The position numbers and the translations under genes were made by a program. From assembly GCA_963711735.1 (NCBI GenBank), contig CAVQFA010000001.1, forward strand, positions 1 to 47,606: 47,606 nt of DNA, given 5' to 3'. A model generated the notes under the pieces. It was given only the letters and a program-made list of their open reading frames with translations, searched no databases and had not been told where the DNA came from. Shown in pieces: positions 1 to 47,606 of this stretch; the stretch's first letter is position 1, and every line of letters starts with the position of its first letter. This stretch comes from Candidatus Gottesmanbacteria bacterium. GTDB lineage: Bacteria > Patescibacteriota > Microgenomatia > UBA10105 > UBA927.

Positions 1-863
1 TATTCAAGTAAGGGAGAAGATGTCGAATCAACACCAACCACAGAGACTCCCAAACAAACAACGACAACAAACAGTCTCTTCTCCCCGACGGAGTCACGGT
101 TGGGTTTGTCGGCAGGATCAAACGGTTCGGAGGACTCACCGGGAAGGGGGTACAGCCAATCCACGCGGTAATTGCCAGAAAAGGCCAGATGGTTGCCATT
201 GCCTCCGCAGACCCATCCAAGGGAACAGTCAGGGTGAACGGAGTGGAAGCAAGACGCCGGTGGAATACTTCTGTCAGCAGGTGACATAGTGGAGATCGGG
301 GATTTGACATTTGCAGTCACAGAGAAGAACGGTGCGATAGGGTTTACGGATGACGAGGGGTACCCCTGTTCGCGTGAAAGGAAATACAAATTATCAGGCA
401 GATACGGCAGAGAGAGCACCAGCGTACGCAGGCATTGCCGCAGGACTCGGGCACGTGCGATCGGCGCAGGCATGGGTGCCGCAGCAGGGGTTTGGTTAGG
501 CGGATTTCCTACTGTTATCGGCATTGTCATCGGACAACTCCCCGCAGTGTATAACCGGACATACCGTTCCTCTTATGCTCTGGCAGCAAACCCGCAATGC
601 TCCAAAACTCCGTTGTTGAGTGCTGATATATTTACAACCGAACCGACAGGTTCCATGGGGGAGAGGCAGAGACTCTTCGAGATTATAGAACCAGCAAAGG
701 CGGAAGACAGCCCATCCGAACAGAGACAGAGGCTCCGCACCAGTAGTACCCGTCAAGCCGGCGTCTGAATCTGCGGTAGCTTCTACAGTTACGACACCCC
801 TACCAAAAGATATCACTTTACGTAAAGGGATCGATTATGAATTAACAGAAAAATTATCCGGCG
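1..863 (+). pseudogene. Decayed upstream part of the left-arm kinase gene, cut by the window edge. It holds a degenerate FHA-like/TM module copy, a linker and the kinase Gly-rich loop.
   Basis: nt 30-635 align with 2443-3046, the intact module inside the 1158-aa ORF. The upstream copy carries at least six single-nt indels, mostly in short homopolymers, so the frame hops between the 20-289 ORF, the 289-768 ORF and a third frame. nt ~780-893 encode ..TPLPKDITLRKGIDYELTEKLSGGGGRDAAVFK, matching the N-terminus of the right-arm kinase ORF. One extra A in tttaaaaggg (887-896) separates this from the 864-4340 frame. Confidence 0.5.
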
Positions 864-3800
864 GTGGAGGTCGTGACGCCGCTGTATTTAAAAGGGATTT
901 ATAACGGGAAAACAGTTGCAATAAAAGTGTTTCCAAATAATAGACAATATGGTCCGGACAGGGGAATGGAATATAGTATTTTGATATCTTCAAAAGGAGT
1001 TTTATATCCACAACCGATCGCACAAATTCAAATAGTGGATCCTTTGGGAAATGAATACCCTGCGTATGTCATGGAATATATTGACGGACAAACACTCGGT
1101 TTATATAAAGGAACCCTACCTGATGCTGTTATTCAGAATGCTTTAAGTAAATTACAGAACCAAATTGACAGAGGATTGAAAAGGGGTGATATAAAAACTG
1201 ACAATATTATTGTTGTTCAAGACGCAAACGGAAAAGCAACCGGGATAAGATTAATCGATCCTTTACCAATGGCTGCTGACGCCAAAGACCCGGTAGGTAC
1301 ATTACGGGGGATATTAGAAAACTATGCAGAACCTGCAAGAACAATTCAGGAAGAACAAACTGTTAAAAAATCAACTACCAAAACAACTGAAGCTACTACT
1401 AAGACGATTACACAAGAGCCGGTGAAAACAAACGCTCGTTTAATAGCACTTCCGAAATGGATGCAGAATATAAAATCAACCCAATTGGCAAAAAGTATTC
1501 TGAATGTTTTGGACAAAGGAATAGCACTTGGCCACAAAACATGGTATTCGCGCATACTCAACGCAACTCCCATAGGATTTGACAGACCGGAAGCAGTGGG
1601 TATAGGTCAAAATATATTTGAAACTACGGCTTGGTATGTCACCCGACTTTCGCCAATTGTGCCTATATTTATTCGAATACCGCTTCTGGTCTATGATGCC
1701 GCACGGTTTGCACGTACTGCCTATATCCAGCCTGAACTTGTTACACCAATGCTCGTGAGAGGCGCTCTCGCAGGAATTATCAGTGTTGTCGGCGGAATGG
1801 TTATAGCGCCACTGATTGCCCCTGTACTTCTTCCTGCCGGAAATTTGATCAAGATGGTTCAACAATTTCTCGGACCGGGAAATGCATTTATATATAATTT
1901 AACAAATCTTTTGTTCAGCATAACGAACCCTAAAAACGTTGTAACTTTCTTAGCATTTACAACGATATTTCAGTTCCATCCGCTCGCCGGAATATCACAG
2001 GCAATCATTAACCGTCTGCCGGCTGTTATTCCCGTTACCCGTACTGCAAAACCGGAGTCCCGTCCTGTTTCAGGATCCTTACTTTCCAACGTATGGAATA
2101 ATATCTCCACCCGGTTCTCCGGACAATTTACGTCATCCGTTCAGCAACAGGTCCATGACTACTTTTTCGGCGACGAGATAGACGCGGAACTGGAGGCATG
2201 GAGAACGCAAACCGGTCGTCAGGTGCCAAAGCTGGACGGGAATGGCAATCAAATCGGTACGGAGACGGAAGATCAATTTGCATCACGGAGAAGAGAGTAT
2301 AAGGATGCAATGGACGTATGGTATGACGCACCGGACGATGTCAAAGTGAATATTGTAAAAGCTCATTTTTCCAATGTTACGGATCCAAAGTTGGATACCT
2401 ACATCCGTGAAGCGATCGAAGATCAGGATAAAGGAGAGACAACACAAACCACAACGGAACCCAAACAAACAACGACGAACAAACAGTCTCTTCTCCCCGA
2501 CGGAGTCACGGTTGAGTTTGTCGGCAGTAGCAAACGGTTCGGAGGACTTACCGGGAAGGGGATACGGCCAATCCACGCGGTAATTGCCAGAAAAGGCCAG
2601 ATGGTTGCCATTGCCTCCGCAGACCCATCCAAGGGAGCAGTCAGGGTGAACGGAGTGGAAGCAGACGCCGGTGGAATACTTCTGTCAGCAGGTGACATAG
2701 TGGAGATCGGGGATTTGACACTTGCAGTCACAGAGAAGAACGGTGCGATAGGGTTTACGGATGACGAGGGTACCCCTGTTCGCGTGAAAGGGAATACAAA
2801 TTATCAGGCAGATACGGCAGAGAGAGCAGCAGCGTACGCAGGCATTGCCGCAGGACTTCGGGCACGTGCAATCGGCGCAGGCATGGGTGCCGCAGCAGGG
2901 GTTTGGTTAGGCGGACTTCCTACTGTTATCGGCATTGTCATCGGACAACTCCCCGCAGTGTATAACCGGACATCCGTTCCTCTTATGCTCTGGCAGCAAA
3001 CCCGCAATGCTCCCAAAACTCCGTTGTTTAGTGCTGATATATTCACGGCGCCAATTGTTACCGAAGTAAATCAGTCTGCCCCGATTCCGGCAGGGAACGA
3101 AGAAACCTCAAGAAGTATATCAGAGACAAAGCAGGTTCCGAGCGACATGCAAATAGTTTCAGAGATACCTGTACAAACTGAAGCAGAACAGCAAAAGTAC
3201 TCAATTCTACAACTTATGTTCCAATCAGTTAGTGATTGGTTAACAAGTGACGATAATGTGGAAAAAGGTTTTGGAAACGGGCAGGCTTTTACGATGACAA
3301 ACATGTTCTACCGTACCTTAGCACAAAATGCCATTGATGCATTTAATAGAGCGCTGGGAAGACCTGAATATTCTCTCGATACACCTATGTCTGAATTAGG
3401 TCAGACAGCATTGACCGTATTAGAAACTCTATTTACCAAGGACGGGATTGTGTTTTTCGGTGAAAAAAACACTATAGAGTTTGATCATCCGCAAAAATTT
3501 ATAACTGATCTCTTTTCCGCACAAAAATTGTTCTACAACAGTAAGGGTGTGCGTGTTTCAGTTGAGGAATATATTCAGGATCGATATAAAAATCTGATCA
3601 ACAGAGGTATGAGTATACAACTTCAGGATTTAGATCCTGAAGTTGTTCTTGAAAAAGTTCGTAATGGAACCTCGTGGGCTGACGCAGAATTTCGAATCCG
3701 TTATCCGGACAGGTATAAGGACTTTCTAAATTCGATGAATTTAGATGAATCCACGATACAAATTCTAAAAGAACAGGGTATACAAATAAGCACCATTGTC

Positions 3801-4340
3801 ATAAAGACGGTGGAGGGAAGAGAATACTTTATCCCGATTCTCAACAACCCAATGAAATTACAGGGAGCTTATGGGGTATTTGCCCATTATGATTCACCAT
3901 CTGATGGGCTTATGGATGCCGGGTGGGTAAATATTAAAGCAAGTAGCATTTATGATCCTTCAGACGGAAAAACGAATTTCCTTGATGCCTTTTCAACCAT
4001 ATTCCACGAGATTGATCACTCAATATACCGTGCAAGCACCACATCCAGGTTCCGGCATATATTTCAGGAACGTAATTCCCAAGAACGGGAATTATCACAA
4101 TTGGTTAATGATGCACTTCAGAAATCAGATTCCATCGATATGTCAATATTATCCAGCAGATATAACGCTTTATTGCGTATACGCGATGACATTTTTGCCT
4201 TCCGACCAGATAATAGTTCTGCACAACTGGAAAATAACGCACAAGAACAAAGAAATACAGCTGAAATTATTTCTATCAGAGAGCTGATAGTCAATACTGC
4301 ATTTGGTTATCAATCAGCAGAAGCAAAAAGAATTCATTAG
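864..4340 (+). CDS. Multi-domain membrane protein: protein-kinase-like domain, polytopic hydrophobic block, FHA-like module, TM helix, and a C-terminal region with an HExxH (zincin-like) motif.
   Basis: Uninterrupted 1158-codon ORF with a GTG start in the track; the true N-terminus probably lies in 1-863. Kinase-fold motifs read directly: VAIKVF (beta3 Lys), YVMEYIDG (hinge), RGDIKTDNIIV (catalytic loop) and IRLIDP (DFG equivalent). A hydrophobic block spans nt ~1640-2020. The FHA-like stretch IRPIHAVIARKGQMVAIASADPSKGAVRVNGVEA..LSAGDIVEIGDLTLAV spans 2562-2730. A Gly/Ala-rich TM lies at ~2830-2965, and HEIDH at 4005-4019. Confidence 0.75.
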   Translation: MEVVTPLYLKGIYNGKTVAIKVFPNNRQYGPDRGMEYSILISSKGVLYPQPIAQIQIVDPLGNEYPAYVMEYIDGQTLGLYKGTLPDAVIQNALSKLQNQIDRGLKRGDIKTDNIIVVQDANGKATGIRLIDPLPMAADAKDPVGTLRGILENYAEPARTIQEEQTVKKSTTKTTEATTKTITQEPVKTNARLIALPKWMQNIKSTQLAKSILNVLDKGIALGHKTWYSRILNATPIGFDRPEAVGIGQNIFETTAWYVTRLSPIVPIFIRIPLLVYDAARFARTAYIQPELVTPMLVRGALAGIISVVGGMVIAPLIAPVLLPAGNLIKMVQQFLGPGNAFIYNLTNLLFSITNPKNVVTFLAFTTIFQFHPLAGISQAIINRLPAVIPVTRTAKPESRPVSGSLLSNVWNNISTRFSGQFTSSVQQQVHDYFFGDEIDAELEAWRTQTGRQVPKLDGNGNQIGTETEDQFASRRREYKDAMDVWYDAPDDVKVNIVKAHFSNVTDPKLDTYIREAIEDQDKGETTQTTTEPKQTTTNKQSLLPDGVTVEFVGSSKRFGGLTGKGIRPIHAVIARKGQMVAIASADPSKGAVRVNGVEADAGGILLSAGDIVEIGDLTLAVTEKNGAIGFTDDEGTPVRVKGNTNYQADTAERAAAYAGIAAGLRARAIGAGMGAAAGVWLGGLPTVIGIVIGQLPAVYNRTSVPLMLWQQTRNAPKTPLFSADIFTAPIVTEVNQSAPIPAGNEETSRSISETKQVPSDMQIVSEIPVQTEAEQQKYSILQLMFQSVSDWLTSDDNVEKGFGNGQAFTMTNMFYRTLAQNAIDAFNRALGRPEYSLDTPMSELGQTALTVLETLFTKDGIVFFGEKNTIEFDHPQKFITDLFSAQKLFYNSKGVRVSVEEYIQDRYKNLINRGMSIQLQDLDPEVVLEKVRNGTSWADAEFRIRYPDRYKDFLNSMNLDESTIQILKEQGIQISTIVIKTVEGREYFIPILNNPMKLQGAYGVFAHYDSPSDGLMDAGWVNIKASSIYDPSDGKTNFLDAFSTIFHEIDHSIYRASTTSRFRHIFQERNSQERELSQLVNDALQKSDSIDMSILSSRYNALLRIRDDIFAFRPDNSSAQLENNAQEQRNTAEIISIRELIVNTAFGYQSAEAKRIH
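2443..3046. repeat. Intact copy of a ~600-nt direct repeat (FHA-like/TM module). The degenerate copy is at 30-635.
   Basis: Base-by-base alignment of 30-635 with 2443-3046 shows long identical runs, for example ggccagatggttgccattgcctccgcagacccatccaaggga. These are interrupted by point changes and 1-nt indels. Confidence 0.85.
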
Positions 4341-4361
4341 CTTCAGATATCAACCGAACAA

Positions 4362-6128
4362 TTGTCAAATGAAATAGCATCCATAAAGTTCTATCTGCAA
4401 AATTCATTTTCAATAATTGGTGAGGGGCTTGCACGACGGGCACAACAGGCTTTTCTCACTACACAGACAGAAGGACTGGCCCGCGACGATGCGGAGAGAT
4501 CAAAAAACATCAGGTCAATCGGCACATTTCTCATTAATCATATTCTCTATATGAGAGATAATGCCAGCGAAAGTGTCACAGCCCCGGAGTATGGAATCGG
4601 TTATCTGCTCACACTCGGCGCTATGCAGGATAATTTTGCCGCAAACGACAGAGTTTATATTGACGACCGGCTGTCACAGTATTTCGAAGAAAATAAAGGA
4701 TCGCTCTTCGGCGTTGTTCAGTATTACATTAATACCGTATTTGATGTAGACCGTCTGCTGAATCCGAATGTAACAGATGATGCACGACAGATACGTGATA
4801 AAACTATTCTTCACAGACTGCTGTCGGATCCTAAAATTGCCGGGTTACTGTTTTGGAATGAACTTCATGCTCTTGAAGCACTGGTTGATGAATATTCTTT
4901 ACTTGACAGCGCGGAACAGAAATCCAGAACACAAACATTACGAGATGAACTAATTGCCGGAGGGTATGAGACTGATGTCAATAAAATAGAACTGCAAGTG
5001 AAAACGCAGACAGAATTATATGCAATTTTGTCTAATTATAAAACCTTTGTTATTCCGTTTAGAAATTATGAAAGGAAATTGCTCACAAATGCATATCAGT
5101 TTGATTTTGCTAACAACCTTTCAAAAATTGATTCTTACGTAAATCTGCAGAGAGCTCCTGAAGAAATACAAGCAGACGGGGAGAAATCTCAAACATCCGG
5201 TCTTATCGGTTCCGGACCGGCACAGTGGTTTGAGGACCTGGCAAATGCAACTGTCTACAAATGGTGGCCGGATACCCGTACCCGTGGCACACTTCCAGTA
5301 CTCTTTGATGCAGTACGAAACAGATTGATCGTATCGTGGACTGCTTGGCAAGAGACTCGCGAAATTAACAAGTTGGTAGGATTATTCAAAACTCAAGCAA
5401 AGGGTAATCTCCAGAACGGGATGGTGTTCGAAAATGCCGGAGCGTACTATAGGGTGGTAACTACACCGAATAACCAAGTGTCATTAATCCGCGTATTGCC
5501 AATGCATGTAGGTATGGCTGATTATCAGCGAACAGTAGGAACATACACTAAAAAAGATAGCCCTCAATCTATTAAATTACCAAATAATTATAAAGTACTG
5601 TTTTGGTGGAACGATGCTGAAGACACACTACTGATGAGACCGGAAAACAGTACGCAGGAGGTTGTTCTCACCGATCAGCCGGTGATATTTACCAACGGAC
5701 TTAAAATTTGGCTTGATGCGAATAAACAGATTCAAACGGATTGGTTTACTGATGATATTAAACTAGACAGAGGGCAATCATTGCGTGTTGATTTTGAAGG
5801 AAGAGTAAATTTAGTTAATCAGGCAGTGACGATAGGAAAGACAACAAGTTTACCGAAATTTCAGATTAATGGAGAATATGTTGCTGAACAGGCAATACAG
5901 AAACCGATACAAGTAGGTGATCATATTATTACGACTACAGGAAATCAATACGTTTTGGTTTCCGGTCAGGATGGGTATTATCAATTAGATCATGAGGACG
6001 GAGCCTCTGAAAGGAGACAGACGCAAACGTTTATTAAAACATATATAAACCGGTTTACTGAAGATCTCGAGAATGCGTCTGGAATTTTTACAATATGTCG
6101 TTTCATATCTAAACCTGTCGATCGGTGA
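4362..6128 (+). CDS. Hypothetical protein (588 aa), no recognisable motif.
   Basis: Long ORF with a TTG start in the track and no in-frame ATG nearby. nt 5161-5328 (EEIQADGEKSQTSGLIGSGPAQWFEDLANATVYKWWPDTRTRGTLPVLFDAVRNRL) recur inside the right-arm giant ORF at 39771-39932. Its 3' end overlaps the next ORF by 56 nt out of frame. Confidence 0.6.
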   Translation: MSNEIASIKFYLQNSFSIIGEGLARRAQQAFLTTQTEGLARDDAERSKNIRSIGTFLINHILYMRDNASESVTAPEYGIGYLLTLGAMQDNFAANDRVYIDDRLSQYFEENKGSLFGVVQYYINTVFDVDRLLNPNVTDDARQIRDKTILHRLLSDPKIAGLLFWNELHALEALVDEYSLLDSAEQKSRTQTLRDELIAGGYETDVNKIELQVKTQTELYAILSNYKTFVIPFRNYERKLLTNAYQFDFANNLSKIDSYVNLQRAPEEIQADGEKSQTSGLIGSGPAQWFEDLANATVYKWWPDTRTRGTLPVLFDAVRNRLIVSWTAWQETREINKLVGLFKTQAKGNLQNGMVFENAGAYYRVVTTPNNQVSLIRVLPMHVGMADYQRTVGTYTKKDSPQSIKLPNNYKVLFWWNDAEDTLLMRPENSTQEVVLTDQPVIFTNGLKIWLDANKQIQTDWFTDDIKLDRGQSLRVDFEGRVNLVNQAVTIGKTTSLPKFQINGEYVAEQAIQKPIQVGDHIITTTGNQYVLVSGQDGYYQLDHEDGASERRQTQTFIKTYINRFTEDLENASGIFTICRFISKPVDR

Positions 6129-9100
6129 CACTTTGCTTCAGGAAAAAAGTTCGGATAATGACGTATTTTTAACATATCTCAAGGAACTGCTTCAACTTTC
6201 CGGTAAACCATGGTTACAAGGGACGGAATCACTCAGGGTTTCTCTAAATCCTGTTGAATCCTGGTCAAAGGATACGGCTAAAATACATTTCCTCTTATTC
6301 CATTTCCTCACGGATACATATCCGGATTTTTCATCATATATGGAAAGAACATATGCATCGTATCCGGAACGTCAACTAGACAGACTCCGCTTCGGAGCAA
6401 ACGCAATCCGCTTTTTAAGTGACCATGGAGGGTTAAACGAATTAGGGGAAATCACGTATCTAAAAAATTTAGAAAAAATTATCATGCTCTATGAATCATA
6501 TACAACTATGTCTTCAGAAAAGTTTACGCAATTAGTGAGGACGACGCTTGCGGATTTTGATCCGGATTTGCAGAATGCAGTATTTGCACGTATGAAGCAA
6601 CAGGAACAATACAGTCCGTTTATAACAGATTCATACATTACCAATGGAGGATACGCAAATCCGTACAAGCCGTTTATGTATAACGGCTGGCTTTTGAACA
6701 TCTGTGAAGAAGAAATACAAGGATTCATGACCCAGCGCTTATTCCGACAGGTGACCGATGAAGCCGGAGTTGACACATTTACGAAACACAGACAGGATAT
6801 GCAGGTATTTTGGGACACCGCTTTTCAAGATACAACAATAGTACGGCCGCAATGGTTTACACCATATCTCTATGCAGAAAAAGAAAAATATGATTACACA
6901 TGGCAATATGTAACAAGTGAAAATACATTAGCAAATGCAGCGGGAATGTTCTTTTTACGACAAAGCTTATCACATGAAGTAACAGGGTTTGAGCAAGTTA
7001 TTAATCACGAAGCAGTTCATCAAACCTATTTATCTGAAAATAGTCCGAGAAAATCAAAAGGTTCCGCCTTTATCCATGAAGAGGTGTTAACCGAATTACT
7101 AGCCCAAATGATTACGGATAAATCACAGGAGATACCCCAAAAGGATCAAGGATTTTCTACATATCAGGGAGGGGTAGACGAACTAATTGATATGTCTAAT
7201 GATATTGATACAAAATTGGGTCACGGATCCGCATTTACAGCCATGGTCAGAGGGATGGCTGATTATGGGAACAATCTGATTGATCACCCATTATTATACT
7301 TCGCTCAATCTTATGAATTGACTCGCGGGAGTACGGAGACGGAATTTTATACGCGCATGTCACCGTTCACCGATGATATTTTACGAAGTGACCCCACAAA
7401 TCTTGCAGAAGATGCTTCGTTTGTTGAAGGGGGTAGAACACTTAATCAGGGAATTCCAGATCAACAGACGCAAAATTTAACCGCCCAAGTTATCTCACGT
7501 ATTCCTTCTGATTTAGCAGTGATTAAAGTAACAAATGACGGTTTGAATATCCGAAATTCCGTCCCTCTAACCATCGGAGAGGGGACATTCCAGGTAAATC
7601 TGGAAGGAGCTCTTCCTGTTTTTTCAAAATTAACGACAATAAACCAAAAAGACGGATACATCACGCGGGTAACTGTAAACGATGCAAACGATAAACGTAT
7701 CGGATATATAGATATTGAATTTACCCGTGGAAATCAGAATGTAGAAAACATAGCCAACAAGATTGGTGTAAACATGAGTAAAGTCATCTTTGTATCAGCA
7801 GATGTCCATGTAAATGACGCATATCGGCAACAAGGAATAGCGACGGCGCTCATGGAGTATTCCGAAACGCTTGCAGGTCAACTTCTTTCCGAAACGCGCA
7901 AATACCCGGATATGTATCCTTCTGACATACACATGGTACGGCTCATATTAGACGGAAATTCTACCGATGGATTTACATCAAAATACGCAGAATCTCATGG
8001 GTACCAGACGATCACGACGGGAACGCAATATGTAAAAGAAATACATCCACCGTTATCCCAATCTACCGCTAATCAACCTACAGCAAAGGTTGTATCAAAT
8101 ATCCGCAATACCATACAACAAGCCAGGGAAGGGTTGGATATAACTCAAAAAGCTGACAGGTTGGTTTTCTTCCGGAAAATTCTTACACTAAGCGGGCAAA
8201 AAATCCGAACCGCCGCAGAGCAGAACATAAGTGAAAAAGAAGTGCGTGCACTTGAGAAATCGATAGTACGAAACAATAAGAGTGTAAAAAATATCGAGAT
8301 GATTGTGCGTCCGTTTACCCAGTACCTTCTGGGATTTATCATAGAAGATAATTTTTCCTCACAAGCGGAGAGGAAGCAATGGGAAAATGAGGTTGTCGGA
8401 GAACTGATAAGTATAGACACATCCGATTCATTGGACACCCAATATTTCGAGTATTACAACTCTAACAAGCTTCGTCCTACTCCCAAAGACACCTTTATCT
8501 CAGCATTTGAGATACTCCGGGTTACATTGAAAGTTCCTTTTCCTGAAGAATTTGAAAAGCGGGCAGAGGGGATAAAATCCGTTAATGACAGGGTGAGAAG
8601 AGGGGAAGTACCCATTGAAGAACAGCTCACAAATATCGGGAAATCAAATACATTGGTTTTTGATATCCTGAATTTTCTCAGTATACATAATATTACACCG
8701 GTCAATGCCGTTTCACCAAAACAACCCCAGCAGAATCCATTTACCCGAATTATAAACACGATTACCGGATTTTTGGAAGCGGGACTCGGACAGATACAAA
8801 ACAACATAGTAGTAGAGAAACTCCTGCAGGTGCCGGCCGGCTTACGGGAAACGCCGGGGCGCCTTAACTCTGACGGTTCAATCGAACCGCCGGTGCCTGC
8901 AGAGGATGAAGAGCAGAATCTCACACTCCCAGAGGTGCCTTCGACAGACACAATCATACAGGAGACAGAGAAAGTGCTTTTGGATGAAAATCTGGTTCTC
9001 AAAGGACCTGAAGAGCTGAAACGCAGTCTCCTTATGGAGCTTGGACAACAGCAGTATAACGGCATTATGCTCAAAGTCCTTCCTGCGTTTGACGGGAAAG

Positions 9101-13599: not shown

Positions 13600-13687
13600 A
13601 AGACTTGCGGAGGTTCGGTAACGAATTTTGAAATGACGCAAAGTTATTCTTTCAGAACTGTTAATCGCTATACTGTACTTCGCTCAA

Positions 13688-13744: not shown

Positions 13745-13822
13745 GTGCATTTCAAAATTATTACCTTCACCTCCTTGTATTCTTTTTTTATTATTCTTCT
13801 AATAGCTAAACTTCTATGTATC

Positions 13823-39300: not shown

Positions 39301-42300
39301 TGACTTGCAAGCGTTTCGGAATACTCCATGAGCGCCGTTGCTATTCCTTGTTCCCTATATGCATCAACCCGGACATCTGCTGATACAAAAATGACTGTAT
39401 CTATGTCTGCACCAATCCGGTTGGCTATGTTTTCTACATTCTGATTTCCGCGGGTAAATTCAATATCAATATATCCGATACGTTTATCGTTTGCGTCGTT
39501 TACAGTTACCCGCGTGATGTATCCGTCTTTTTGGTTGATTGTTGTTAATTTTGAAAAAACAGGAAGAGCTCCTTCCAGATTTACCTGGAATGTCCCCTCT
39601 CCGATGGTTAGAGGGACGGAATTTCGGATATTCAAACCGTCATTTGTTTGTTCAAACACAGTTAAATCAGAGGGAATACGTGAAGTAATTTGGGCGGGTA
39701 AATTTTTCGTCTGTTGATTTTGTTGAGACTGTTGTGGACGAAATGCCGGAACTAATCCACTCAATCTATTTCGTACTGCATCAAACAGTACTGGAAGTGT
39801 CCCACGGGTACGGGTGTCCGCCCACCACTTGTAAACAGTTGCGTTTGCCAGGTCCTCAAACCACTGTGCCGGTCCGGAACCGATAAGACCGGATGTTTGA
39901 GATTTCTTCCCGTCTGTTTGTATTTCCTGAGGATTAAAAAATATTGAAGAATTTATCTTCCCGGTTGATCGGATGAAAAATTTTATAAAACCTGATACCT
40001 GATTGGGTATCGGAGTACCTTTCAGCTGTTGCCTCTCTTTAACATAATTAACCCTTATCGTCTCTATGGAACCAGCCAATCGTTGAAGAAGCGGTGTTAC
40101 GGATACAGGCTGTTCTTCAGCAACTGTAGTTTTTTTAAATCCGGTTATAAATTGGCGGACAAGTCTGGATAATCTGTTATTTTTTAACGCTTCATACACA
40201 AATCCGAGTCCCCCGAATCCCGTGAAGAAAGATGTGTCTGTGCGTCTTGAAATATCTCCGGATGTCCTTATAGTTGGTACAAAAACGTATTGTTGGCGGT
40301 TCACAAAATACCGTATCCGTGAACCGGGATTTGCATCCAATCCGTAATGAAATCCAAACCATGCGCTTTGCCCGGCAAATGTCGATCGGCCTGCCTGCGC
40401 TATAGCCGGATAATAGACACCGTCCCTCGTCTCTCCTTCACCGGGAATCACCATTGCAATATGTCCCGGTACTCCGGTAAATCTGGCGGATGCAACGACA
40501 GGTAAACCTTGGTTTGCGAGGTTTTGCGCTTCCTCCGGAGTTATCTCTGTCCATCCGACATCAGCACCCCGTCCTGCAACCCACCCGGATTGCTCCATCC
40601 CCTCACCGCTTAACCAATCCGCTATCCAGTTTGCATTTGTTTTTGATACTTCATAATTTCCTCTATCCGTGTTATACATTGGCGCATATCGGGGTATCTC
40701 TACCCTCAAAGCCTGTGTCACGTCCCAGACAAATACATTACAGTACGTTTGATCAATAATGGTATTTCCGTACGCGTCCGTCGTGGTAATCGGTTGATAC
40801 CGCTCTGACTGGGTTACATTAAAGTACTGTATTGTTGATAAATAATTATCAGCAGTCCTTACATATCCTGTTGCCGGTAATACTGCAGGATCCACAGGCA
40901 ACCACTCGTCATGAGAAGTAAGAACAATACCCCCATCCCTTGATATTTCGTACTGTGCAAACCCGTCGTACGGGCTTGCAACATCCATAGTGTATGCAAT
41001 GGTTGTCGTTGATGATTGGGTTTCAGGTTGTAAAGTCTCTGCGTTTGCCTGTATTGTGGTCCCGGAACCGGGATTTGAAGGACTTATCCCTAACTCCCGG
41101 AGGCGTGCTTCGACTCTCCCGCGGAAATACGTCATGAATTCCGTACCGGGATCCGGTTTGCCTCTGTCTACCGTCTGTCCGCTTTCGTTTACATATGTAT
41201 CACGTTCATTATGCCCGTAAATTTGGTCGACCGGTATATTGTATTGCACCATCGTGCTTATTACCCCGTCTACGGCTAATGCTACCTCTGTCTCCGGTAC
41301 GTTCGTGGTGTCATTTGCGGCAGTAAAATCACTTCCGGCAAGTTCATAATTTATTGCTCCGGGTTGGCCGAACGCGCCGTAAGATTCGGCTACCTGGGTT
41401 TCGTACATCGGAAGAAATTGCACTATACCGTCGGGTCCTACACCAAAATGCGCATTTGTTGATCGCGTCTCTAACACTATATTTCCATCCGGCTGAAGTG
41501 TTTCACGCTCCGCAACACCCGATAAACCGTTATATGTGGTATTTGAATTCCATCCGGACGGATCTCCGCTCTGACCGTCCCAATGTATGATTATCTCTGT
41601 CGGAGTTACCCGGGTACCCTCATTCGGAAGTTCCCTGTATCTCGGAGCAAAAAGGAGTGTGTCACCGGTCTGAGCCGGCTGCATTTGTTCAGGTAAACCG
41701 GTGACATGCTGCACTGATATATTTTCTTCTGCGTTTCCCGCCGGAGGTATAACATCATTCTCCAAATCCTGTTCCTGGACGGCTGGTGGCAGTGTTTGTA
41801 CGATTTCATCTTCCTGTTGGTTTTGGATATCTTCCCCGAATGTATATTCCTCAGGTACTTGTTCAAAATTTCTCTCAAAGAATTCCTCGGGTGTCTCCGT
41901 CGTAAGAACCTGTGCAATCGGAGCAATATCCCGGGGAGGAAGGTTCAGAATTGGTACAAAAAACGTATTGTATGCAAATATTCCGATCGCAAAGAGAGAG
42001 GCTACTCCGGCGCCGCTTAATATCGCCAATGGTTTTGATATACGTTGTCTTCCCTGCTTATTTGTCTCTACAGGTTTTTGTGCTTCTTTAACGGGATATA
42101 ATTCCGCTCTCCAGCTTGTTCTGCCATCACCGTAGGAAAATTCCAATAAATATATCGGGTTTTTGTCATCTGTTTTCACTGCCCGGACATAGAGGTTCGT
42201 CTCATTCTGTCTTGTTTTCGGAAGGGCGCCTTTTGGCACAACCGTACCATCACTTTTCACCATATACCAACCGGTATTTCCGCTCTTGGGTCGGACACCA

Positions 42301-45300
42301 CCGTCTGCAGAAATGCCCTTCACCGTATCAAGAGTGTACTGATTCCCTCCGATTTGAACCGTAACCTTCCCGATTGCAGTTTTAACTATCTGAGGAACAT
42401 CCGATGCTGCAAGGTGTGCAAAATTGAGAATGTCCGTTATAACTCCCGGATTATGTATTGTTCCTGATACGACATTGCCCAGTCGTGTAATTGCCTCATC
42501 GAGTAAATAGAGAGACCAGTCTGTCTCCGGTTTGCGCACGCGTGATGACATGGATGTGCGGTATGACGAAAGGGTCTTTATGTACTCCTGTGCGGAAATC
42601 GTTTGAAGAAGGGCGTTACGGACGTTGGTGAGGAAGCTAGAAGAAAAAATACCACGCTTGGAAACAATGGACGGATCCATAAGCTCTTTTACTCTCCCCC
42701 ACGTATCCCATCCCCGGTTTTCATCCGCTGCTTTTATATGTGCCTGAATGATGGCATCAACAACACCGATTCGTCCCTGCGTTTTATCTCCTGCGATCCA
42801 TGTGTGGATTTCCCTCTGAATTTGTATTGCCTGTGTTGCGGCGTACTCCCGAACTACTCTGCCTGCTTCTGAATCGGATTGTATTTGTATGGAACTCTGG
42901 CTATTTAACTGATTAAGCATAGCCTCTGCAATAATCCGGGTAAATGTATCGGTGAAATCAGCAGAGCTTGCAGGATCGGCACTCTTAAATGACGCAAGCA
43001 TATCGGCGACACCCGCATCCATCCTGAGTGATATGATATTTTGTGTTTGAGTAAAAAGTGTATCCAACTCCTGTGGATTCGGTCCGCGCTGAGGGAGGAC
43101 CTGGTTTTCCTGTGTTTTAGACGGTGAAGAAAGGAATATATGAAGCTGGCCCTGATCTGAAAGGTCTTTTGTGCTGTCCGGCGGGGATTCAACATGAATG
43201 ACAACTCCGTTGCTCGTAATATCAACGCTGATATCACCGATATACGGTGTGTCACCTTTATCCGGTATTTCCTGTGTCCTTGATCCTTCTTTAACCTGAA
43301 TGGGTTTGCCGGTTTTATTCACGAGATGCCACCCGCGGTTTCGTTCATAATACCACTCGATATCTCCAAGCAGCCGTGTATGAACGAGCGTCTTTCCGTA
43401 TCGGTCTGTGCCGGAAGACCCTATGATAACCGGACTTTCGTTTCTCTCCGGATGAGTTTCAAGAGTATACCGGTTACGCGTTCCGCGCGTCCTGTAGGTC
43501 CTTCCCTCACCCATCACGATCCCGCGGGTTGTCGGATAGAGGTTTCGTTCGTTTGTTGTTTCGTATGCAGTTATCTCGGGATTCGGATTAAATCCCGGAG
43601 GGAATGGTGATGTCACTTGTCTTGAAAGAATTCCGTCCAATGTTTCCGGAATTGTCAGAAGATGTATATTCGTACCAATTTCAAATGTCCCCGGTTTATC
43701 CGTATCACTCCGGATGAATGCTCCGCCGTTTAACCTGCGTACGATGCTGAAAATGAAAACCGGATTGGTCCTGAGTGTTTCTTTAAGCGCATCTGCTGTG
43801 GATTTGGGAAGTGCAAATGCCGTGTAATATACGCCTGTTCGTTGTTCTAATTGTCCGTACATCCGAACCGCTACGAGAACATCTCCTCCGGTGTTAATAC
43901 CCATGGTGTTTCTTTCAGCTGAACTGAGGGGTATAAATGAAACCGATGTATGGTCATTTCCCTCTTTATCCATTCCTGTCTTCCCTTCGATGTTTCTTTT
44001 CCCGCCAAGGAATTGATCATTAATTCTTATGTTTCCGCTGAACGTATACCCTCTGTTATTTCTGCTTGTAACCATGTACCCATTGTTCGGAATCTTCTCC
44101 ACCCATGGGTCAGTCTCTGTTTCATTTACCCATAAAACACCTGATTCAGGCGTTCCTTTGTTGGTAGTTGGAATATTTCCGGATACATTTTCACTTCCTT
44201 CCGGTATAACAGGTTTTACATTCGGAGCTTCCGCAGGATATTGAACTGCCTGTCCCAGAAGGTCATCTGTCACGGCATCGATGAGCACCTCCCATTCATC
44301 ATCAGAAAGGAAGATTTCTTCTTTCGTCTTGGTATTGGTAAACGTTATGTTTTCGGTGATTGCAGCATCTACTTTGTCCCGTATGATCTGCCGCACGTCA
44401 GCATCAGTTTTTCCTTCCTGTGCTGCCTTTACCCCCTCAGAGAGAATTGCCGGAAGGAGAGGCTGTATCTGTGTATCAAACTGCTTCCGGATACCACCGC
44501 TTTGAAGAGAGGCTAACCGGATGCCCTCAGAAAACAGCTGATCACCACGCATCATTCTGACGATCTGAGGCGTGATAAACCTGTCATACGACACATAGGA
44601 CAGAAAAGAAGTAAACGCGCCTCCGAACACAGGTGTGGTATTGAGTGTGAAACCTCCCAATATTGTCCCCAGAACCAAGGGTGTCGGAATGATGACCTTT
44701 TTCAATTTTGTCATCCAGTACAGAGTTGCAATTTGACTCTTTGTTGATGTCTGGAGCGTGTCATCACCATGGAATGGTTGTGCTTCTATGACATCTTTTC
44801 CGTTTTGTTTCGTCTGTACGGGGTATGTCAGGACGAGTACTCTGGCCTGCATTCTCTGCACTGTGAGGGGGATATTTTGTTTGCTCCCGATGATAACGGT
44901 ATCTCCCTCAGAGAGGGCTGTGTGTGTAGAGAGAAGCACGGGGTTTGTGGTTCCTGATTTTACGAGGTATACCGGCGCGGTCTTTCCCCGTGCAGGTGCA
45001 ATTCCGACGATGTCACCGGATGCGGCATCGTACGCGACAATGGCATGGACAACATCAAGACCACTCAGATCTACGGTTGATTTGCGTGAATTTCCGACGA
45101 GCTCGTAGCGTAACATGTCTGTGGCAGCTTCATTTGCTGGTTTTTGGACAGGCGTTTTTGCTTCCTCCTCTGTTGCTGCCGGCTTTTGGGAAGCATCATT
45201 GAGTGCGGGACCTGTTAATGATTCTGCCGGACGGGTAATGGTGATGCGGGCCGGCAGACGGTTAATGATTGCCTGTGATATTCCGGCAAGCGGATGGAAC

Positions 45301-45641
45301 TGAAATATCGTGGTAAATGCTAAGAAAGTTACAACGTTTTTAGGGTTCGTTATGCTGAATAAAAGATTTGTTAATTTATATATAAATGCATTTCCCGATC
45401 CGAGGAATTGTTGAACCATCTTTATCAAATTTCCGGCAGGAAGAAGTACAGGGGCAATCAGTGGCGCTATAACCATTCCGCCGACAACACTGATAATACC
45501 TGCGAGAGCGCCTCTCACGAGCATTGGTGCAACAAGTTCAGGCTGGATATAGGCAGTACGTGCAAACCGTGCGGCATCATAGACCAGAAGCGGTATTCGA
45601 ATAAATATTGGTACAATTGGCGAAGTCGGGTGACATACCAA
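36363..45641 (-). CDS. Giant multi-domain membrane protein (3092 codons as drawn). N to C: hydrophobic block, FHA-like module, TM, long unassigned region, TM, Amidase_2-like domain, papain-like Cys/His domain, GNAT-like segment, degenerate GGDEF-like segment, conserved tail.
   Basis: 9.3-kb uninterrupted ORF. The first residues after the nominal start (SPIVPIFIRIPLLVYDAARFA..) are internal residues of the left-arm 1158-aa protein. The real 5' end is therefore probably the kinase ORF 45515-46510, separated by a 1-nt T-run difference at ~45623. The FHA-like stretch MLRYELVGNSRKSTVDLSGLDVVHAIVAY..LSEGDTVIIG lies at ~44847-45116. A TM (ILSGAGVASLFAIGIFAY) lies at ~41930-42040. Confidence 0.8.
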   Translation of the reverse strand: MVCHPTSPIVPIFIRIPLLVYDAARFARTAYIQPELVAPMLVRGALAGIISVVGGMVIAPLIAPVLLPAGNLIKMVQQFLGSGNAFIYKLTNLLFSITNPKNVVTFLAFTTIFQFHPLAGISQAIINRLPARITITRPAESLTGPALNDASQKPAATEEEAKTPVQKPANEAATDMLRYELVGNSRKSTVDLSGLDVVHAIVAYDAASGDIVGIAPARGKTAPVYLVKSGTTNPVLLSTHTALSEGDTVIIGSKQNIPLTVQRMQARVLVLTYPVQTKQNGKDVIEAQPFHGDDTLQTSTKSQIATLYWMTKLKKVIIPTPLVLGTILGGFTLNTTPVFGGAFTSFLSYVSYDRFITPQIVRMMRGDQLFSEGIRLASLQSGGIRKQFDTQIQPLLPAILSEGVKAAQEGKTDADVRQIIRDKVDAAITENITFTNTKTKEEIFLSDDEWEVLIDAVTDDLLGQAVQYPAEAPNVKPVIPEGSENVSGNIPTTNKGTPESGVLWVNETETDPWVEKIPNNGYMVTSRNNRGYTFSGNIRINDQFLGGKRNIEGKTGMDKEGNDHTSVSFIPLSSAERNTMGINTGGDVLVAVRMYGQLEQRTGVYYTAFALPKSTADALKETLRTNPVFIFSIVRRLNGGAFIRSDTDKPGTFEIGTNIHLLTIPETLDGILSRQVTSPFPPGFNPNPEITAYETTNERNLYPTTRGIVMGEGRTYRTRGTRNRYTLETHPERNESPVIIGSSGTDRYGKTLVHTRLLGDIEWYYERNRGWHLVNKTGKPIQVKEGSRTQEIPDKGDTPYIGDISVDITSNGVVIHVESPPDSTKDLSDQGQLHIFLSSPSKTQENQVLPQRGPNPQELDTLFTQTQNIISLRMDAGVADMLASFKSADPASSADFTDTFTRIIAEAMLNQLNSQSSIQIQSDSEAGRVVREYAATQAIQIQREIHTWIAGDKTQGRIGVVDAIIQAHIKAADENRGWDTWGRVKELMDPSIVSKRGIFSSSFLTNVRNALLQTISAQEYIKTLSSYRTSMSSRVRKPETDWSLYLLDEAITRLGNVVSGTIHNPGVITDILNFAHLAASDVPQIVKTAIGKVTVQIGGNQYTLDTVKGISADGGVRPKSGNTGWYMVKSDGTVVPKGALPKTRQNETNLYVRAVKTDDKNPIYLLEFSYGDGRTSWRAELYPVKEAQKPVETNKQGRQRISKPLAILSGAGVASLFAIGIFAYNTFFVPILNLPPRDIAPIAQVLTTETPEEFFERNFEQVPEEYTFGEDIQNQQEDEIVQTLPPAVQEQDLENDVIPPAGNAEENISVQHVTGLPEQMQPAQTGDTLLFAPRYRELPNEGTRVTPTEIIIHWDGQSGDPSGWNSNTTYNGLSGVAERETLQPDGNIVLETRSTNAHFGVGPDGIVQFLPMYETQVAESYGAFGQPGAINYELAGSDFTAANDTTNVPETEVALAVDGVISTMVQYNIPVDQIYGHNERDTYVNESGQTVDRGKPDPGTEFMTYFRGRVEARLRELGISPSNPGSGTTIQANAETLQPETQSSTTTIAYTMDVASPYDGFAQYEISRDGGIVLTSHDEWLPVDPAVLPATGYVRTADNYLSTIQYFNVTQSERYQPITTTDAYGNTIIDQTYCNVFVWDVTQALRVEIPRYAPMYNTDRGNYEVSKTNANWIADWLSGEGMEQSGWVAGRGADVGWTEITPEEAQNLANQGLPVVASARFTGVPGHIAMVIPGEGETRDGVYYPAIAQAGRSTFAGQSAWFGFHYGLDANPGSRIRYFVNRQQYVFVPTIRTSGDISRRTDTSFFTGFGGLGFVYEALKNNRLSRLVRQFITGFKKTTVAEEQPVSVTPLLQRLAGSIETIRVNYVKERQQLKGTPIPNQVSGFIKFFIRSTGKINSSIFFNPQEIQTDGKKSQTSGLIGSGPAQWFEDLANATVYKWWADTRTRGTLPVLFDAVRNRLSGLVPAFRPQQSQQNQQTKNLPAQITSRIPSDLTVFEQTNDGLNIRNSVPLTIGEGTFQVNLEGALPVFSKLTTINQKDGYITRVTVNDANDKRIGYIDIEFTRGNQNVENIANRIGADIDTVIFVSADVRVDAYREQGIATALMEYSETLASQLLAETRKYPDMYPSDIRMLRLILDGNSTGGFTSKYAESHGYQTITTGTQYVKEILPPLSQSTANQPTAEVVSNVRNTMQQAKEGLDITKEADRMVFFRKILTLSGQRIRTTAEQNISEKDVRALEKSIVRNNKSVNNIEMIVRPFIQYLLGFIIEDTFSTQAERKQWEDAVVGELRSIDTTGTLETQYFEFYNSNKLRPTPKDTFISAFEILRVTLKVPFPEEFEKRAQEIKAVNDGVRRGEVSIEEQLVNIEKSNALVFDILNFLSIYKITPVNAVSPAQPQQNLFIRIINMITGFFEAGLGQIRNNIAVETLLQVPAGSRETPGRLNSDGSTEPPAPAEDEVQNLTLPEMPSIDTIIQETEKVLLDENLVLKGPEELKRSLLMELGQQQYNGIMVKVLPAFDGRDADIGMYDQFTGNKLSRSQVQDFLNGLYSKYSRSRLVFGPGRYIIKRAQKTISVALRFDMQYLSGLNGVKTVIPNLMGDYGLHAVFGAIQNAVDAFNAKHPKYPIELHHTTGDEGLIALTFSVDNETVLTDALLNELVGSMTDSVEAIKLPYFSIDAEGKERVEIRPAKIHFDIANPLEFLNVQTIIANSQLTLDDRITFLKKVQPALAEYLDVTILDQYNDEDRAKYISLFEDLYYDPVLLPAMLETLLPNNDETTGFLPVAVYRDRKNFEANVRNKNGNGTVYLVKADIPIIMKSENYTSYAAGNIFKQHFFKRILSAIPPHIRQKFIGKDGDFLQLFTYVRNSEIYIALPGDIFDEKDAASVTDALQRINDVYLSSMSEKEYSMIVGSAYVRMSLAESDSLVFDKAFEELAPVVFLRQMQKIYTTLANKETPLSFIPHYLQYFNPYDKKGIIHLRAIGARPKEIVSLRKISIDTGNGIGFIEPDRQPGFRLDLLEILKRYIGNESKTQTLDKIQTRISTRFIEVEPFFPERTHIFADEATTYDPSVPIVSDTYTQEQPVNTSHLSLIYI
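40330..40790 (-). other. Papain-like Cys/His hydrolase domain (NlpC/P60- or CHAP-type) within the giant ORF.
   Basis: QTYCNVFVWDV carries the candidate nucleophile Cys (codon at 40740-40742). FTGVPGHIAMVIPGEG carries the candidate His (~40463-40465). The Cys-then-His order and the ~90-residue spacing fit this fold. Confidence 0.45.
41125..41605 (-). other. N-acetylmuramoyl-L-alanine amidase (Amidase_2/PGRP-type)-like domain within the giant ORF.
   Basis: The motifs occur in family order: TEIIIHWDG (first His), NAHFGVGPDGIVQF, GAINYELAG, VDQIYGHNERD (second His) and DRGKPDPGTEF (K-x-DPG). Confidence 0.6.
44241..45196. repeat. Intact copy of a ~955-nt direct repeat (right-arm FHA-like/TM module). 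The degenerate copy is at 46652-47606.
   Basis: Both copies start ttgaactgcctgtcccaga.. and run collinearly to ..gctgccggcttttgggaa at 45196 and at the window end. They differ by point changes and small indels. Confidence 0.85.
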
Positions 45642-46510
45642 GCCGTAGTTTCAAATATATTTTGACCTATACTCACTGCTTCCGGCCTGTCAAATCCTAT
45701 GGGAGTTGCGTTGAGGATGCGTGAATACCATGTTTTGTGGCCAAGTGCAATTCCTTTGTCCAAAACATTCAGAATACTTTTTGTCAATTGGGTCGCTGCA
45801 ATATTCTGCATCCACTTAGGAAGTGTAATTGTACGGGTGCTTGTTTTCCCTGTCTCCCCTGCTGTCGTCTGAGTAGTAGTTTTAACAGGTTGAGTAGTTG
45901 ATTTTTCAGTCACTTGTTTCACCGGAGCTGTCTTTGCAGCTTCTGCGTAGTTTTCTAATATACCCCGCAACGTGCCTACCGGATCTTTGGCGTCAGCAGC
46001 CATTGGTAATGGATCAATTAATCTTATCCCTGTTGCTTTTCCGTATGCGTCTTGAACAACAATAATATTGTCAGTTTTTATATCACCCCTTTTCAATCCT
46101 CTGTCAATTTGGTTCTGTAATTTACTTAAAGCATCCTGAATAACAGCATCAGGTAGGGTTCCTTTATATAAACCGAGTGTTTGTCCGTCAATATATTCCA
46201 TGACATATGCAGGGTATTCATTTCCCAAAGGATCCACTATTTGAATTTGTGCGATCGGTTGTGGATATAAAACTCCTTTTGAAGATATCAAAATACTATA
46301 TTCCATTCCTCTGTCCGGACCATATTGTCTATTATTGGGAAACACTTTTATTGCAACTGTCTTTCCTTGGTATATTCCTTTAAATACCGCAGCATTTCTA
46401 CCTCCGCCTCCGGATAGTTTCGCTGTTAATTCGTAATCAATCCCTTTATGTAGTGGGATATCTTTTGGCAGAGGTGTCGTAACAGTAGATGCTACCGGAG
46501 ATTCAGACAC
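45515..46510 (-). CDS. Protein-kinase-like domain ORF (331 codons as drawn), probably the 5' part of the giant gene.
   Basis: It carries SGGGGRNAAVFKG (Gly-rich loop), VAIKVF, YVMEYIDG, RGDIKTDNIIV and IRLIDP. It is collinear with left-arm 864-1650 up to ..ETTAWYVTRL and then leaves frame: cccgacttcgcc here against cccgactttcgcc in the left arm. The GTG start is nominal, because the frame stays open upstream into the decayed module copy. Confidence 0.65.
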   Translation of the reverse strand: MSESPVASTVTTPLPKDIPLHKGIDYELTAKLSGGGGRNAAVFKGIYQGKTVAIKVFPNNRQYGPDRGMEYSILISSKGVLYPQPIAQIQIVDPLGNEYPAYVMEYIDGQTLGLYKGTLPDAVIQDALSKLQNQIDRGLKRGDIKTDNIIVVQDAYGKATGIRLIDPLPMAADAKDPVGTLRGILENYAEAAKTAPVKQVTEKSTTQPVKTTTQTTAGETGKTSTRTITLPKWMQNIAATQLTKSILNVLDKGIALGHKTWYSRILNATPIGFDRPEAVSIGQNIFETTAWYVTRLRQLYQYLFEYRFWSMMPHGLHVLPISSLNLLHQCS

Positions 46511-46651
46511 CGGCTTGGTAGGTACTTCTGGTGCAGCTTCTGTTTCTGTTTGGATGCGTTCGTTTTCTGCCTTTGTTACATCTGTGGTTTGTAGAGTCTC
46601 CGCCTCCGATGAAGTCGTTGGCTTTGTTTCTTCTGTTGTTGCTGCAGCGGG

Positions 46652-47606
46652 TTGAACTGCCTGTCCCAGAGGTCATCTGTCACGGCATCGATGAGCACCT
46701 CCCATTCATCATCAGAAAGGAACATTCTTCTTTCGTCTTGGTATTGGTAAACGTTATGTTTTCGGTGATTGCAGCATCTACTTTGTCCCGTATGATCTGC
46801 CGCACGTCAGCATCAGTTTTTCCTTCCTGTGCTGCCTTTACCCCCTCAGAGAGAATTGCCGGAAGGAGAGGCTGTATCTGTGTATCAAACTGCTTCCGGA
46901 TACCACCGCTTTGAAGAGAGGCTAACCGGATGCCCTCAGAAAACAGCTGATCACCACGCATCATTCTGACGATCTGAGGCGTGATAAACCTGTCATACGA
47001 CACATAGGACAGAAAAGAAGTAAACGCGCCTCCGAACACAAAGTGTGTGGTATCTAAGTGTGAAACCTCCCAATATTGTCCCCAGAACCAAGGGTGTCGG
47101 AATGATGACCTTTTTCAATTTTGTCATCCAGTACAGAGTTGCAATTTGACTCTTTGTTGATGTCTGGAGCGTGTCATCACCATGGAATGGTTGTGCTTCT
47201 ATGACATCTTTTCCGTTTTGTTTCGTCTGTACGGGGTATGTCAGGACGAGTACTCCGCCCGTATTTCTCTGCACTGTGAGGGGGATATTTTGTTTGCTCC
47301 CGATGATAACGGTATCTCCCTCAGAGAGGGCTGTGTGTGTAGAGAGAAGCACGGGGTTTGTGGTTCCTGATTTTACGAGGTATACCGGCGTGGTCTTTCC
47401 CCGTGCAGGTGCAATTCCGACGATGTCACCGGATGCGGCATCGTACGCGACAATGGCATGGACAACATCAAGACCACTCAGATCTACGGTTGATTTGCGT
47501 GAATTTCCGACGAGCTCGTAGCGTAACATGTCTGTGGCAGCTTCATTTGCTGGTTTTTGGACAGGCGTTTTTGCTTCCTCCTCTGTTGCTGCCGGCTTTT
47601 GGGAAA
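46652..47606 (-). pseudogene. Decayed second copy of the right-arm FHA-like/TM module, upstream of the kinase domain and cut by the window edge.
   Basis: ORFs 46993-47529 and 46680-47039 encode residues almost identical to aa ~176-450 of the 3092-aa ORF, but in two frames with further 1-nt indels near 46670 and 46715. If those indels are ignored, the frame runs ..LGQAVQPAAATTEETKP..EAAPEVPTKPVSESPVAST straight into the kinase ORF. Confidence 0.5.

Follow-up and report, generated by a model that had tools for sequence, protein, structure and literature searches.

Contig CAVQFA010000001.1, from a Candidatus Gottesmanbacteria assembly (GCA_963711735.1), carries the same genes in mirror order on either side of its middle. 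It raises the question of whether a palindrome of this size exists in a bacterial chromosome or was made during sequencing and assembly. The window analyzed here is the entire contig, at its full length of 47606 nt. An earlier note on this DNA had described it as one imperfect palindrome. Comparison of the window with its own reverse complement by blastn bore this out, yielding four mirror blocks about the axis 23641/23642 (E = 0 for all four, with coordinate sums constant at 47178–47307).

695–2023 with 46575–45250, 90.8% identical
7460–15812 with 39718–31370, 93.5% identical
15927–22219 with 31370–25073, 91.3% identical
22388–24919, self-palindromic, 78% identical

In our reading, the contig represents a genuine inverted duplication, arranged head to head, in the chromosome of a bacterium of the candidate phyla radiation (CPR) that is Gottesmanbacteria-like, with a unit of at least 24 kb; we regard the chances of this as evenly balanced. 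Our proposal is that the duplicated unit consists of a cell-envelope glycosylation cluster and the gene of a surface or giant protein of ~4,700 aa. It presupposes that the two arms are part of a single DNA molecule; the contig would otherwise be a head-to-head misjoin of two related strains.

Divergence and selection in the two arms

Each arm spans ~23.6 kb; the left one is called arm A and the right one arm B. Across ~16 kb they are 91–93.5% identical (blastn), i.e., about 8% diverged. Their global alignment gave 84–99% identity per 500 bp outside two exceptions, namely 2024–7459/39719–45249 and the part encoding the C-terminal portion of a 470-aa protein. The mirrored intergenic spacers reported earlier were seen, and all nine gene pairs listed at that time were present at their positions. 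The pairs of the glycosylation cluster, named by the length of their products, are given below.

22100–23502 (–), 470-aa membrane protein A, with a frameshift near 22930; right copy at 23780–25192, intact
20482–22090 (+), 534-aa membrane protein A, with 7 indels; right copy at 25202–26806, intact
18548–20290 (–), 580-aa GT-C (PMT_2) glycosyltransferase A, intact; right copy at 26998–28742, with four one-base indels
17686–18441 (–), 251-aa protein A, intact; right copy at 28854–29610, with a 1-bp indel
15960–17600 (+), 546-aa membrane protein A; mirror copy at 29697–31337; both intact
13823–15757 (–), 644-aa membrane glycosyltransferase-like protein with C-terminal NPCBM, copy A; mirror copy at 31425–33359
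11035–13641 (–), YfhO-like large membrane protein A; mirror copy at 33582–36146
23780–36146, the right-arm set of 470 (+), 534 (–), 580 (+, broken), 251 (+, broken), 546 (–), 644 (+), and YfhO-like (+) genes, matching the single-copy cluster of the relatives in order and orientation

The differences between the arms fell mostly at third codon positions (17/4/89 by codon position in the 644-aa gene). The ratio of nonsynonymous to synonymous divergence (dN/dS) was 0.05–0.24 in all nine alignable comparisons, frameshifted genes included and replaced cassettes excluded, at a synonymous divergence (dS) of 0.18–0.38. For the intact pairs (dS 0.22–0.38), dN/dS was 0.054 (644 aa), 0.10 (YfhO-like, dS 0.22), and 0.17 (546 aa, dS 0.375). 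Transitions outnumbered transversions by ~2:1. Two cassettes were replaced, one encoding the central ~1,800 aa of the giant protein and the other the C-terminal part of the 470-aa protein; for the former, 2024–7459 and 39719–45249 showed no similarity even as protein, except for a 173-bp island. Because of the third-position bias, the low dN/dS, and the unrelated cassettes, the arm differences are biological and evolutionary in origin. Sequencing noise as their source was rejected by the codon-position pattern and the cassettes. The earlier description of clearly diverged arms, with substitutions, indels, and cassette replacement, held, and codon positions and dN/dS show that the divergence is old and shaped by selection.

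The same data bear on the idea that one molecule was read twice, be it as an unsplit nanopore read, through a missed PacBio adapter, by snap-back amplification, or at a hairpin telomere, with the arm differences being noise. The symmetry of the contig about its midpoint and its noisy ends agree with this idea, to which we nevertheless give next to no credence. Noise would not respect codons, keep dN/dS at 0.05–0.24, or favor transitions ~2:1, and it would not put unrelated or much more divergent sequence in the place of 5.4 kb and 0.8 kb. Adapter-like sequence was absent at the axis, and intact open reading frames (ORFs) of up to 3092 aa indicate a consensus, not a raw read. The codon-position pattern, the dN/dS values, and the unrelated cassettes refute it. 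Artifacts that copy a single molecule are excluded altogether, because third-position bias and dN/dS identify the arms as two selected sequences. A hairpin or replicated telomere junction was also rejected: the arms differ by ~8% and contain non-homologous cassettes, and no resolvase-like ORF was found in the window.

The divergence was patchy, with 0–57 differences per 300 bp (chi-square p = 2e-39), and the longest identical tracts between the arms measured 425 bp against a shuffle maximum of 172. The identical tracts and the uneven divergence imply that the arms exchanged sequence after diverging. They are two haplotypes that probably recombined with each other and with outside alleles, and such exchange is easy for two copies in one cell. 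The 470-aa gene stands out in this respect, with dS rising from 0.47 in its N-terminal to 1.12 in its C-terminal part. The N-terminal parts of the two proteins are ~90% identical, and the C-terminal parts show ~62–70% raw column identity. Over the C-terminal two-thirds (22210–23030 versus 24290–25192), dS was 1.1, compared with 0.2–0.5 in the neighboring sequence. This pattern points to a putative recombinational allele replacement, as at polysaccharide polymerase or ligase genes.

The earlier note implied that all copies were intact. The pairs exist, but several ORFs are broken in one or the other arm: those of the 470-aa protein, the 534-aa protein (7 indels), and the giant gene on the left, and those of the 580-aa and 251-aa proteins and of the kinase/giant junction on the right. 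One-base indels, many of them outside homopolymers, were clustered at 20951–21639 (left 534) and 27909–28946 (right 580 and 251), with further clusters at 4340–4362, 6073–6128, ~22930, and 45515–45641. With the reading frame taken from the intact copy, dN/dS of the frameshifted genes was 0.21 (534 aa), 0.17 (580 aa), 0.11 (251 aa), and 0.24 (kinase block). The frameshifts are consensus errors, because a gene with seven frameshifts could not stay so constrained. An explanation of the broken copies as old pseudogenes was rejected, as the 534-, 580-, and 251-aa genes (dN/dS 0.11–0.21) behave like intact ones. At the contig ends, the indel-to-substitution ratio was 1:1 to 1:2, and the end copies differ from the inner repeats mainly through clustered 1-bp indels. 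The gene breaks and the ragged ends are long-read consensus errors, and the contig stems from an error-prone long-read assembly. Cross-mapping of reads between the similar arms during polishing may have worsened the indels.

The axis and the routes that could lead to it

Three elements make up the center of the window.

23540–23617, left 78-bp arm of the perfect inverted repeat, located upstream of 470-A and carrying promoter-like TTGTAA-17-TAAAAT
23618–23664, 47-nt center, an imperfect palindrome with 4 substitutions and 1 indel
23665–23742, right 78-bp arm of the perfect inverted repeat, located upstream of 470-B

The center had been taken for a 45-nt spacer. It is not neutral, as it is itself palindromic: between the perfect 78-bp arms, an 8-bp stem (23632–39/23644–51) closes a GAAA loop (23640–43), with the axis at 23641|23642. 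The predicted fold of the center has an energy of –112.7 kcal/mol (z = –30.9). The promoter-like TTGTAA-17-TAAAAT occurs in each arm, ~20 nt upstream of the 470 start codon, which places the axis in a bidirectional upstream region. The axis is intergenic, though 95% of the arm is coding (~5% non-coding). The 22 nt that separate the stem from the perfect arms were ~20% different, the level expected of unconstrained sites at dS 0.2–0.4. The 78-bp arms beside the axis showed zero differences, in contrast to the 1.5–4% indel-rich noise at the contig ends, and on this comparison the axis sequence looks well supported. Queries for SMRTbell, Oxford Nanopore (ONT), Nextera, and TruSeq adapters gave no match above background at the axis.

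A fold-back event could account for this arrangement. A DNA end would have arisen just upstream of the 470-aa gene, and the exposed 3′ strand would have folded back and annealed at the short inverted repeat CTCCGCCT-GAAA-AGGCGGAG, priming synthesis along its own arm. The product would be a palindrome with a 4-nt loop, in which each copy of the 470-aa gene would have kept its own promoter. Both arms would later have evolved under the purifying selection shown by dN/dS, with divergence becoming patchy and two cassettes being swapped. The patchiness may reflect occasional arm-to-arm conversion together with the import of foreign alleles, and the arms might now specify two variants of one surface system. 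Base-exact symmetry on a natural hairpin, in a rare non-coding gap and with both promoters kept, is what fold-back priming predicts and a random chimera does not.

An assembly chimera is the alternative that deserves most attention, and we hold it to be possible, if doubtful. It supposes two co-occurring Gottesmanbacteria populations, ~92% identical and each with a single cluster. Physical fold-back molecules, formed at the hairpin upstream of the 470-aa gene, perhaps during library preparation or whole-genome amplification, would link the locus to its own reverse complement. With each read or graph edge used once, the return path would be laid through, or polished to, the other population, giving A followed by the reverse complement of B. 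Several points favor such a route: ~0.6% of genomic long reads are fold-backs, often adapter-less (PMC12870357), amplified DNA is rich in palindromic chimeras (10.1101/173872, PMC13265396), and the contig carries long-read indel errors. Against it, a fold-back molecule would connect A with its own reverse complement and not with that of B. The arms are ~20% different within 26 nt of the loop, and from 600 bp outward the C-terminal part of the 470-aa gene (~62–70% identity, dS 1.1) is beyond what polishing could interconvert. An 8-bp stem cannot turn an assembly graph round, and reasoning through the possible paths, we found none by which an assembler would pass from A to the reverse complement of B at such a stem in the absence of a physical palindromic molecule. 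The fold point lies in the 5% of non-coding sequence and exactly on a hairpin, unlike random fragment-end fold-backs, and the consensus beside it is clean.

The cumulative GC skew peaks at the axis, the left arm being positive and the right arm negative, although any palindrome of a skewed region yields a peak or a trough. The polarity is compatible with that expected of a replication terminus at the axis. No dif-like site, tRNA gene, or Rfam element was found at or near the axis.

The skew also enters into a third explanation, in which the paralogues are real and their adjacency is false: one genome would hold two loci, e.g., on opposite replichores, which the assembler joined head to head. 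This would explain why the skew of both arms is 'correct' for their orientation, and it would reconcile the conversion-like identical tracts with the lack of unique flank. The join would have to fall at exactly homologous bases across an 8-bp hairpin, which is impossible through overlap. Moreover, duplicated clusters were not seen in the relatives, with one locus in each of 45 genomes. We consider this explanation improbable.

The giant gene, the contig ends, and the relatives

The outer part of each arm is occupied by the giant gene, whose segments are as follows (TM, transmembrane).

1–632 (+), left contig end, noisy partial FHA-like module 1 of giant gene A; direct repeat of 2440–3043 (95.9%, 8 gaps)
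695–2023 (+), kinase-like and TM block of giant gene A; mirror at 45250–46575; weak Pkinase and PrkT matches
2024–7459 (+), variable cassette of giant gene A, with FHA-like module 2 at 2440–3043 and frameshift breaks at ~4340–4362 and 6073–6128; unrelated to the right cassette except for 5156–5328
7460–10818 (+), C-terminal tail of giant gene A, conserved and containing a GNAT-like stretch; mirror at 36363–39718, 93.5% identical in nucleotides
36363–46672 (–), giant gene B, with tail 36363–39718, cassette 39719–45249 (module 2 at 44241–45192), and kinase-like and TM block 45250–46575
46652–47605 (–), right contig end, noisy partial FHA-like module 1 of giant gene B; direct repeat of 44241–45192 (98.5%, 7 gaps)

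The outermost 0.6–1 kb of the window is not mirrored; instead, each end directly repeats sequence of its own arm 2411 bp inward. The period is exactly 2411 bp in each arm, with FHA-like modules flanking the kinase-like and TM block. The contig stops at the same place on both sides because the giant gene has two near-identical FHA-like modules 2.4 kb apart. The modules are nearly identical within an arm and unrelated between the arms, so their intragenic homogenization, which affects the distal parts of the modules, is arm-specific.

A protein from the public data extends the picture beyond the left end. P0124, a 1788-aa protein in an NCBI/ENA record of a 567,027-bp contig, was matched by the left-arm ORF 864–4340. 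Its residues 1357–1768 equal the left kinase-like and TM block at 411/412 positions, residues 1064–1305 are the error-free counterpart of the noisy left contig end, and the final 20 residues correspond to window positions ~2124–2190 read in a shifted frame. The leftmost 2.2 kb of the window are thus shared with the 567-kb contig, which most likely comes from the same assembly. This overlap implies that arm A belongs to a substantial real genome. It further implies that the start of the giant gene lies at least 1,356 aa upstream and that the gene encodes ~4,700 aa in total. What had been called kinase heads are consequently internal to the giant gene, as P0124 shows and as the frame upstream of the block in giant gene B, which stays open to 46672, also indicates. 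A 2411-bp tandem duplication at both ends was rejected, since P0124 contains two FHA-like modules in one giant gene, partly homogenized.

The size of that contig bears on the chimera as well. To assemble 567 kb, true reads must have been plentiful at the axis, and a false join at that point becomes harder to obtain. At such a depth, true reads that lead from the 470-aa gene into its actual upstream neighbor should outvote rare chimeras.

The tails of the two giant proteins share 90% amino acid identity over 1115 residues, and the GNAT match (Acetyltransf_7) had E = 6.5e-4. Inside the otherwise unrelated cassettes, the 173-bp island (5156–5328 versus 39933–39761) is 93% identical, encodes protein that is 77% identical over 74 aa, and is displaced by ~2.2 kb from the mirror register. 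A role as recombination anchor is conceivable, as is a conserved motif. In one relative (L010:16709–17296), a 197-aa stretch is 56–58% identical to the GNAT-like part of the tail and lies ~3 kb downstream of the YfhO-like gene, with its relative orientation unchanged. A smaller gene already resident at this place may therefore have grown into the giant gene.

The cluster itself could be followed across relatives. The host is a CPR bacterium close to Ca. Gottesmanbacteria. With the 644-aa protein as query, 45 loci were found in GTDB genomes at identities of 65% or below, the named lineages being Ca. Gottesmanbacteria, Woesebacteria, or Patescibacteria group. In 5.8 billion proteins, the nearest relative was 68% identical, compared with 97% between the two arm copies; the lineage is otherwise unsampled, and no sequence of the same species was found. 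About 18 third-party records of metagenome-assembled genomes (MAGs) in ENA that carry the cluster are titled 'uncultured Gammaproteobacteria'. We take this title to be a mislabel, because the other matches to the conserved cluster are named Gottesmanbacteria, Woesebacteria, or Patescibacteria.

Each arm holds a cluster of GT-C-type membrane glycosyltransferases, as seen from PMT_2, the Gpi18-like homologues, NPCBM, and the synteny in 47 relatives. NPCBM was found in the 644-aa protein at E = 7.9e-30, and its homologues are named 'Gpi18-like mannosyltransferase', some of them with PF09594. The 580-aa protein matched PMT_2 with 27.1 bits (cut-off 26.1). The gene adjoining the 644-aa gene in all relatives had been called YfhO-like; neither Pfam nor NCBIfam supports this name, which is kept here as a label. 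For the 470-aa protein, no homologue besides its own paralogue was detected in 5.8 billion proteins. Between the 644-aa and 546-aa genes, a 115-bp segment at 15812–15926 is present in the left arm only. It is bordered by TTTACGAT on both sides and holds a CCCGCC...GGCGGG hairpin; a small insertion is one possible origin, a miniature mobile element another.

In the relatives, the detectable gene order is that of one arm: 470-like (+), 534 (–), 580 (+), 251 (+), 546, 644 (+), YfhO-like (+), with variable insertions and extra paralogues. In relatives with a 20-kb locus, the strand with the 644-aa and YfhO-like genes has a negative GC skew (C-rich) across the whole 22 kb. The uniform sign implies that the orientation of the cluster relative to the skew, and presumably to replication, is conserved across the clade. 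No switch of the skew was found within 10 kb of the cluster in the relatives. The axis pattern was absent from JGI, IMG/VR, and GTDB contigs.

The relatives also supply the first of several points that weigh against a natural duplication. The earlier note had proposed looking for the same architecture in related genomes. A mirror copy was sought within 10 kb in 47 relatives (45 GTDB genomes and 2 metagenome contigs) and was absent from all of them, the cluster being single in 47/47, as the chimera would have it. The axis lies at 49.7% of the contig, and unique flank is visible on neither side; a chimera, too, would leave a wholly palindromic contig with its axis at the midpoint and no unique flank. 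Selection constrains the two copies of each gene as strongly as it does orthologues, although redundant paralogues would be expected to relax in one copy. The non-homologous cassettes and the fivefold range of dS are typical of co-occurring strains in one species complex. Two populations would supply just this, with dN/dS at the level of orthologues in each gene, a mosaic such as strains show, and exchanged cassettes. The substitution matrix between the arms is symmetric (Bowker p = 0.44, a test of low power) and the GC skew is equally strong in both. Two genomes in the same orientation would give this combination, which at such power weighs little and again agrees with the chimera. For the right end, no partner protein was found: only the window's own 119-aa ORF was returned by searches that also missed the window's right-arm ORFs, so that this missing flank in the deposited data, another point in favor of the chimera, is a weak one. 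Finally, CPR genomes are streamlined, at ~1 Mb, and we know of no documented precedent for a symmetric, spacer-less palindrome surviving to dS ~0.25.

Known palindromes and the meaning of the contig

The closest natural counterparts are the inverted repeats of Lactobacillus delbrueckii ssp. bulgaricus, which span 38–76 kb at the replication terminus; one of them, of 47.5 kb, consists of two 23-kb repeats (PMC5345009). They have been attributed to fold-back priming on a short inverted repeat by a break, the ancestral spacer being put at 8 bp, and were screened for with arms at least 98% identical (PMC5345009). The window resembles them in its size range, its head-to-head orientation, and the proposed fold-back origin, and its skew polarity would be compatible with a terminus. 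As in that type, its inverted arms exceed 8 kb and lie less than 10 kb apart, and the duplication is absent from sister lineages, in which the cluster is single-copy. The arm identity of 91–93.5% falls below the 98% of the screen. The L. bulgaricus arms, at least 98% identical, are eroding into pseudogenes around an acquired unique center of 1–8.8 kb and contain dif sites. Those of the window are ~92% identical, are both under purifying selection, and are symmetric down to a 4-nt loop; a dif-like site was not found. These differences weaken L. bulgaricus as a precedent for a natural duplication here.

Fold-back or palindromic chimeric reads (PMC12870357; Pacasus, 10.1101/173872; PMC13265396) are alike in their midpoint symmetry, adapter-less halves, and long-read errors. 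Their arms differ only by random error, whereas the window combines two selected haplotypes with different cassettes around a specific intergenic hairpin.

Kugelberg and Roth reportedly described, in 2010, tandem inversion duplications belonging to the palindrome-induced class of Salmonella and E. coli. A further report presents palindrome-induced inverted duplication at an interrupted palindrome in an E. coli sbcCD recA background (PMC3315005). Such duplications share with the window the snap-back at a short inverted repeat and a symmetric initial junction. They are laboratory-selected, unstable, and young, with junctions remodeled by deletion, whereas the junction of the window is symmetric at dS ~0.25. 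Plastid inverted repeats and the palindromes of the human Y chromosome are inverted over tens of kb, with arms kept near-identical by conversion and with kilobase-scale spacers. Arm-to-arm exchange is common to them and the window, where conversion would be only occasional and the arms are diverged.

Should the contig prove an artifact, it would represent an unusual failure mode, a palindromic contig with arms from two strains, which filters for identical arms would miss. Such contigs would inflate estimates of duplication and contamination in MAGs. In either case, the deposited contig is not usable as evidence of gene duplication pending a check of the reads.

If the inverted duplication is natural, the chromosome of this streamlined CPR bacterium stably maintains a palindrome of at least 48 kb that lacks a spacer and is possibly centered on the terminus, at dS ~0.25 and with both arms functional and diversified by cassettes. 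We hold this tentatively, at slightly less than an even chance. The accompanying claim, that one cell carries two variants of the surface-glycosylation cluster and of the ~4,700-aa giant protein, is put forward jointly with it and is just as tentative. Very large head-to-head inverted repeats in bacterial chromosomes would then have two natural examples, of which the window would be the first from outside Lactobacillus. No earlier long-lived, diverged giant palindrome would be on record for such a chromosome, this being the first with arms that diverged under selection instead of eroding. The lineage would either tolerate long palindromes or lack the nucleases that act against them. The finding would bear on the survival of palindromes without SbcCD-type cleavage, on the rescue of chromosomes by fold-back, and on surface diversification in episymbionts with tiny genomes.

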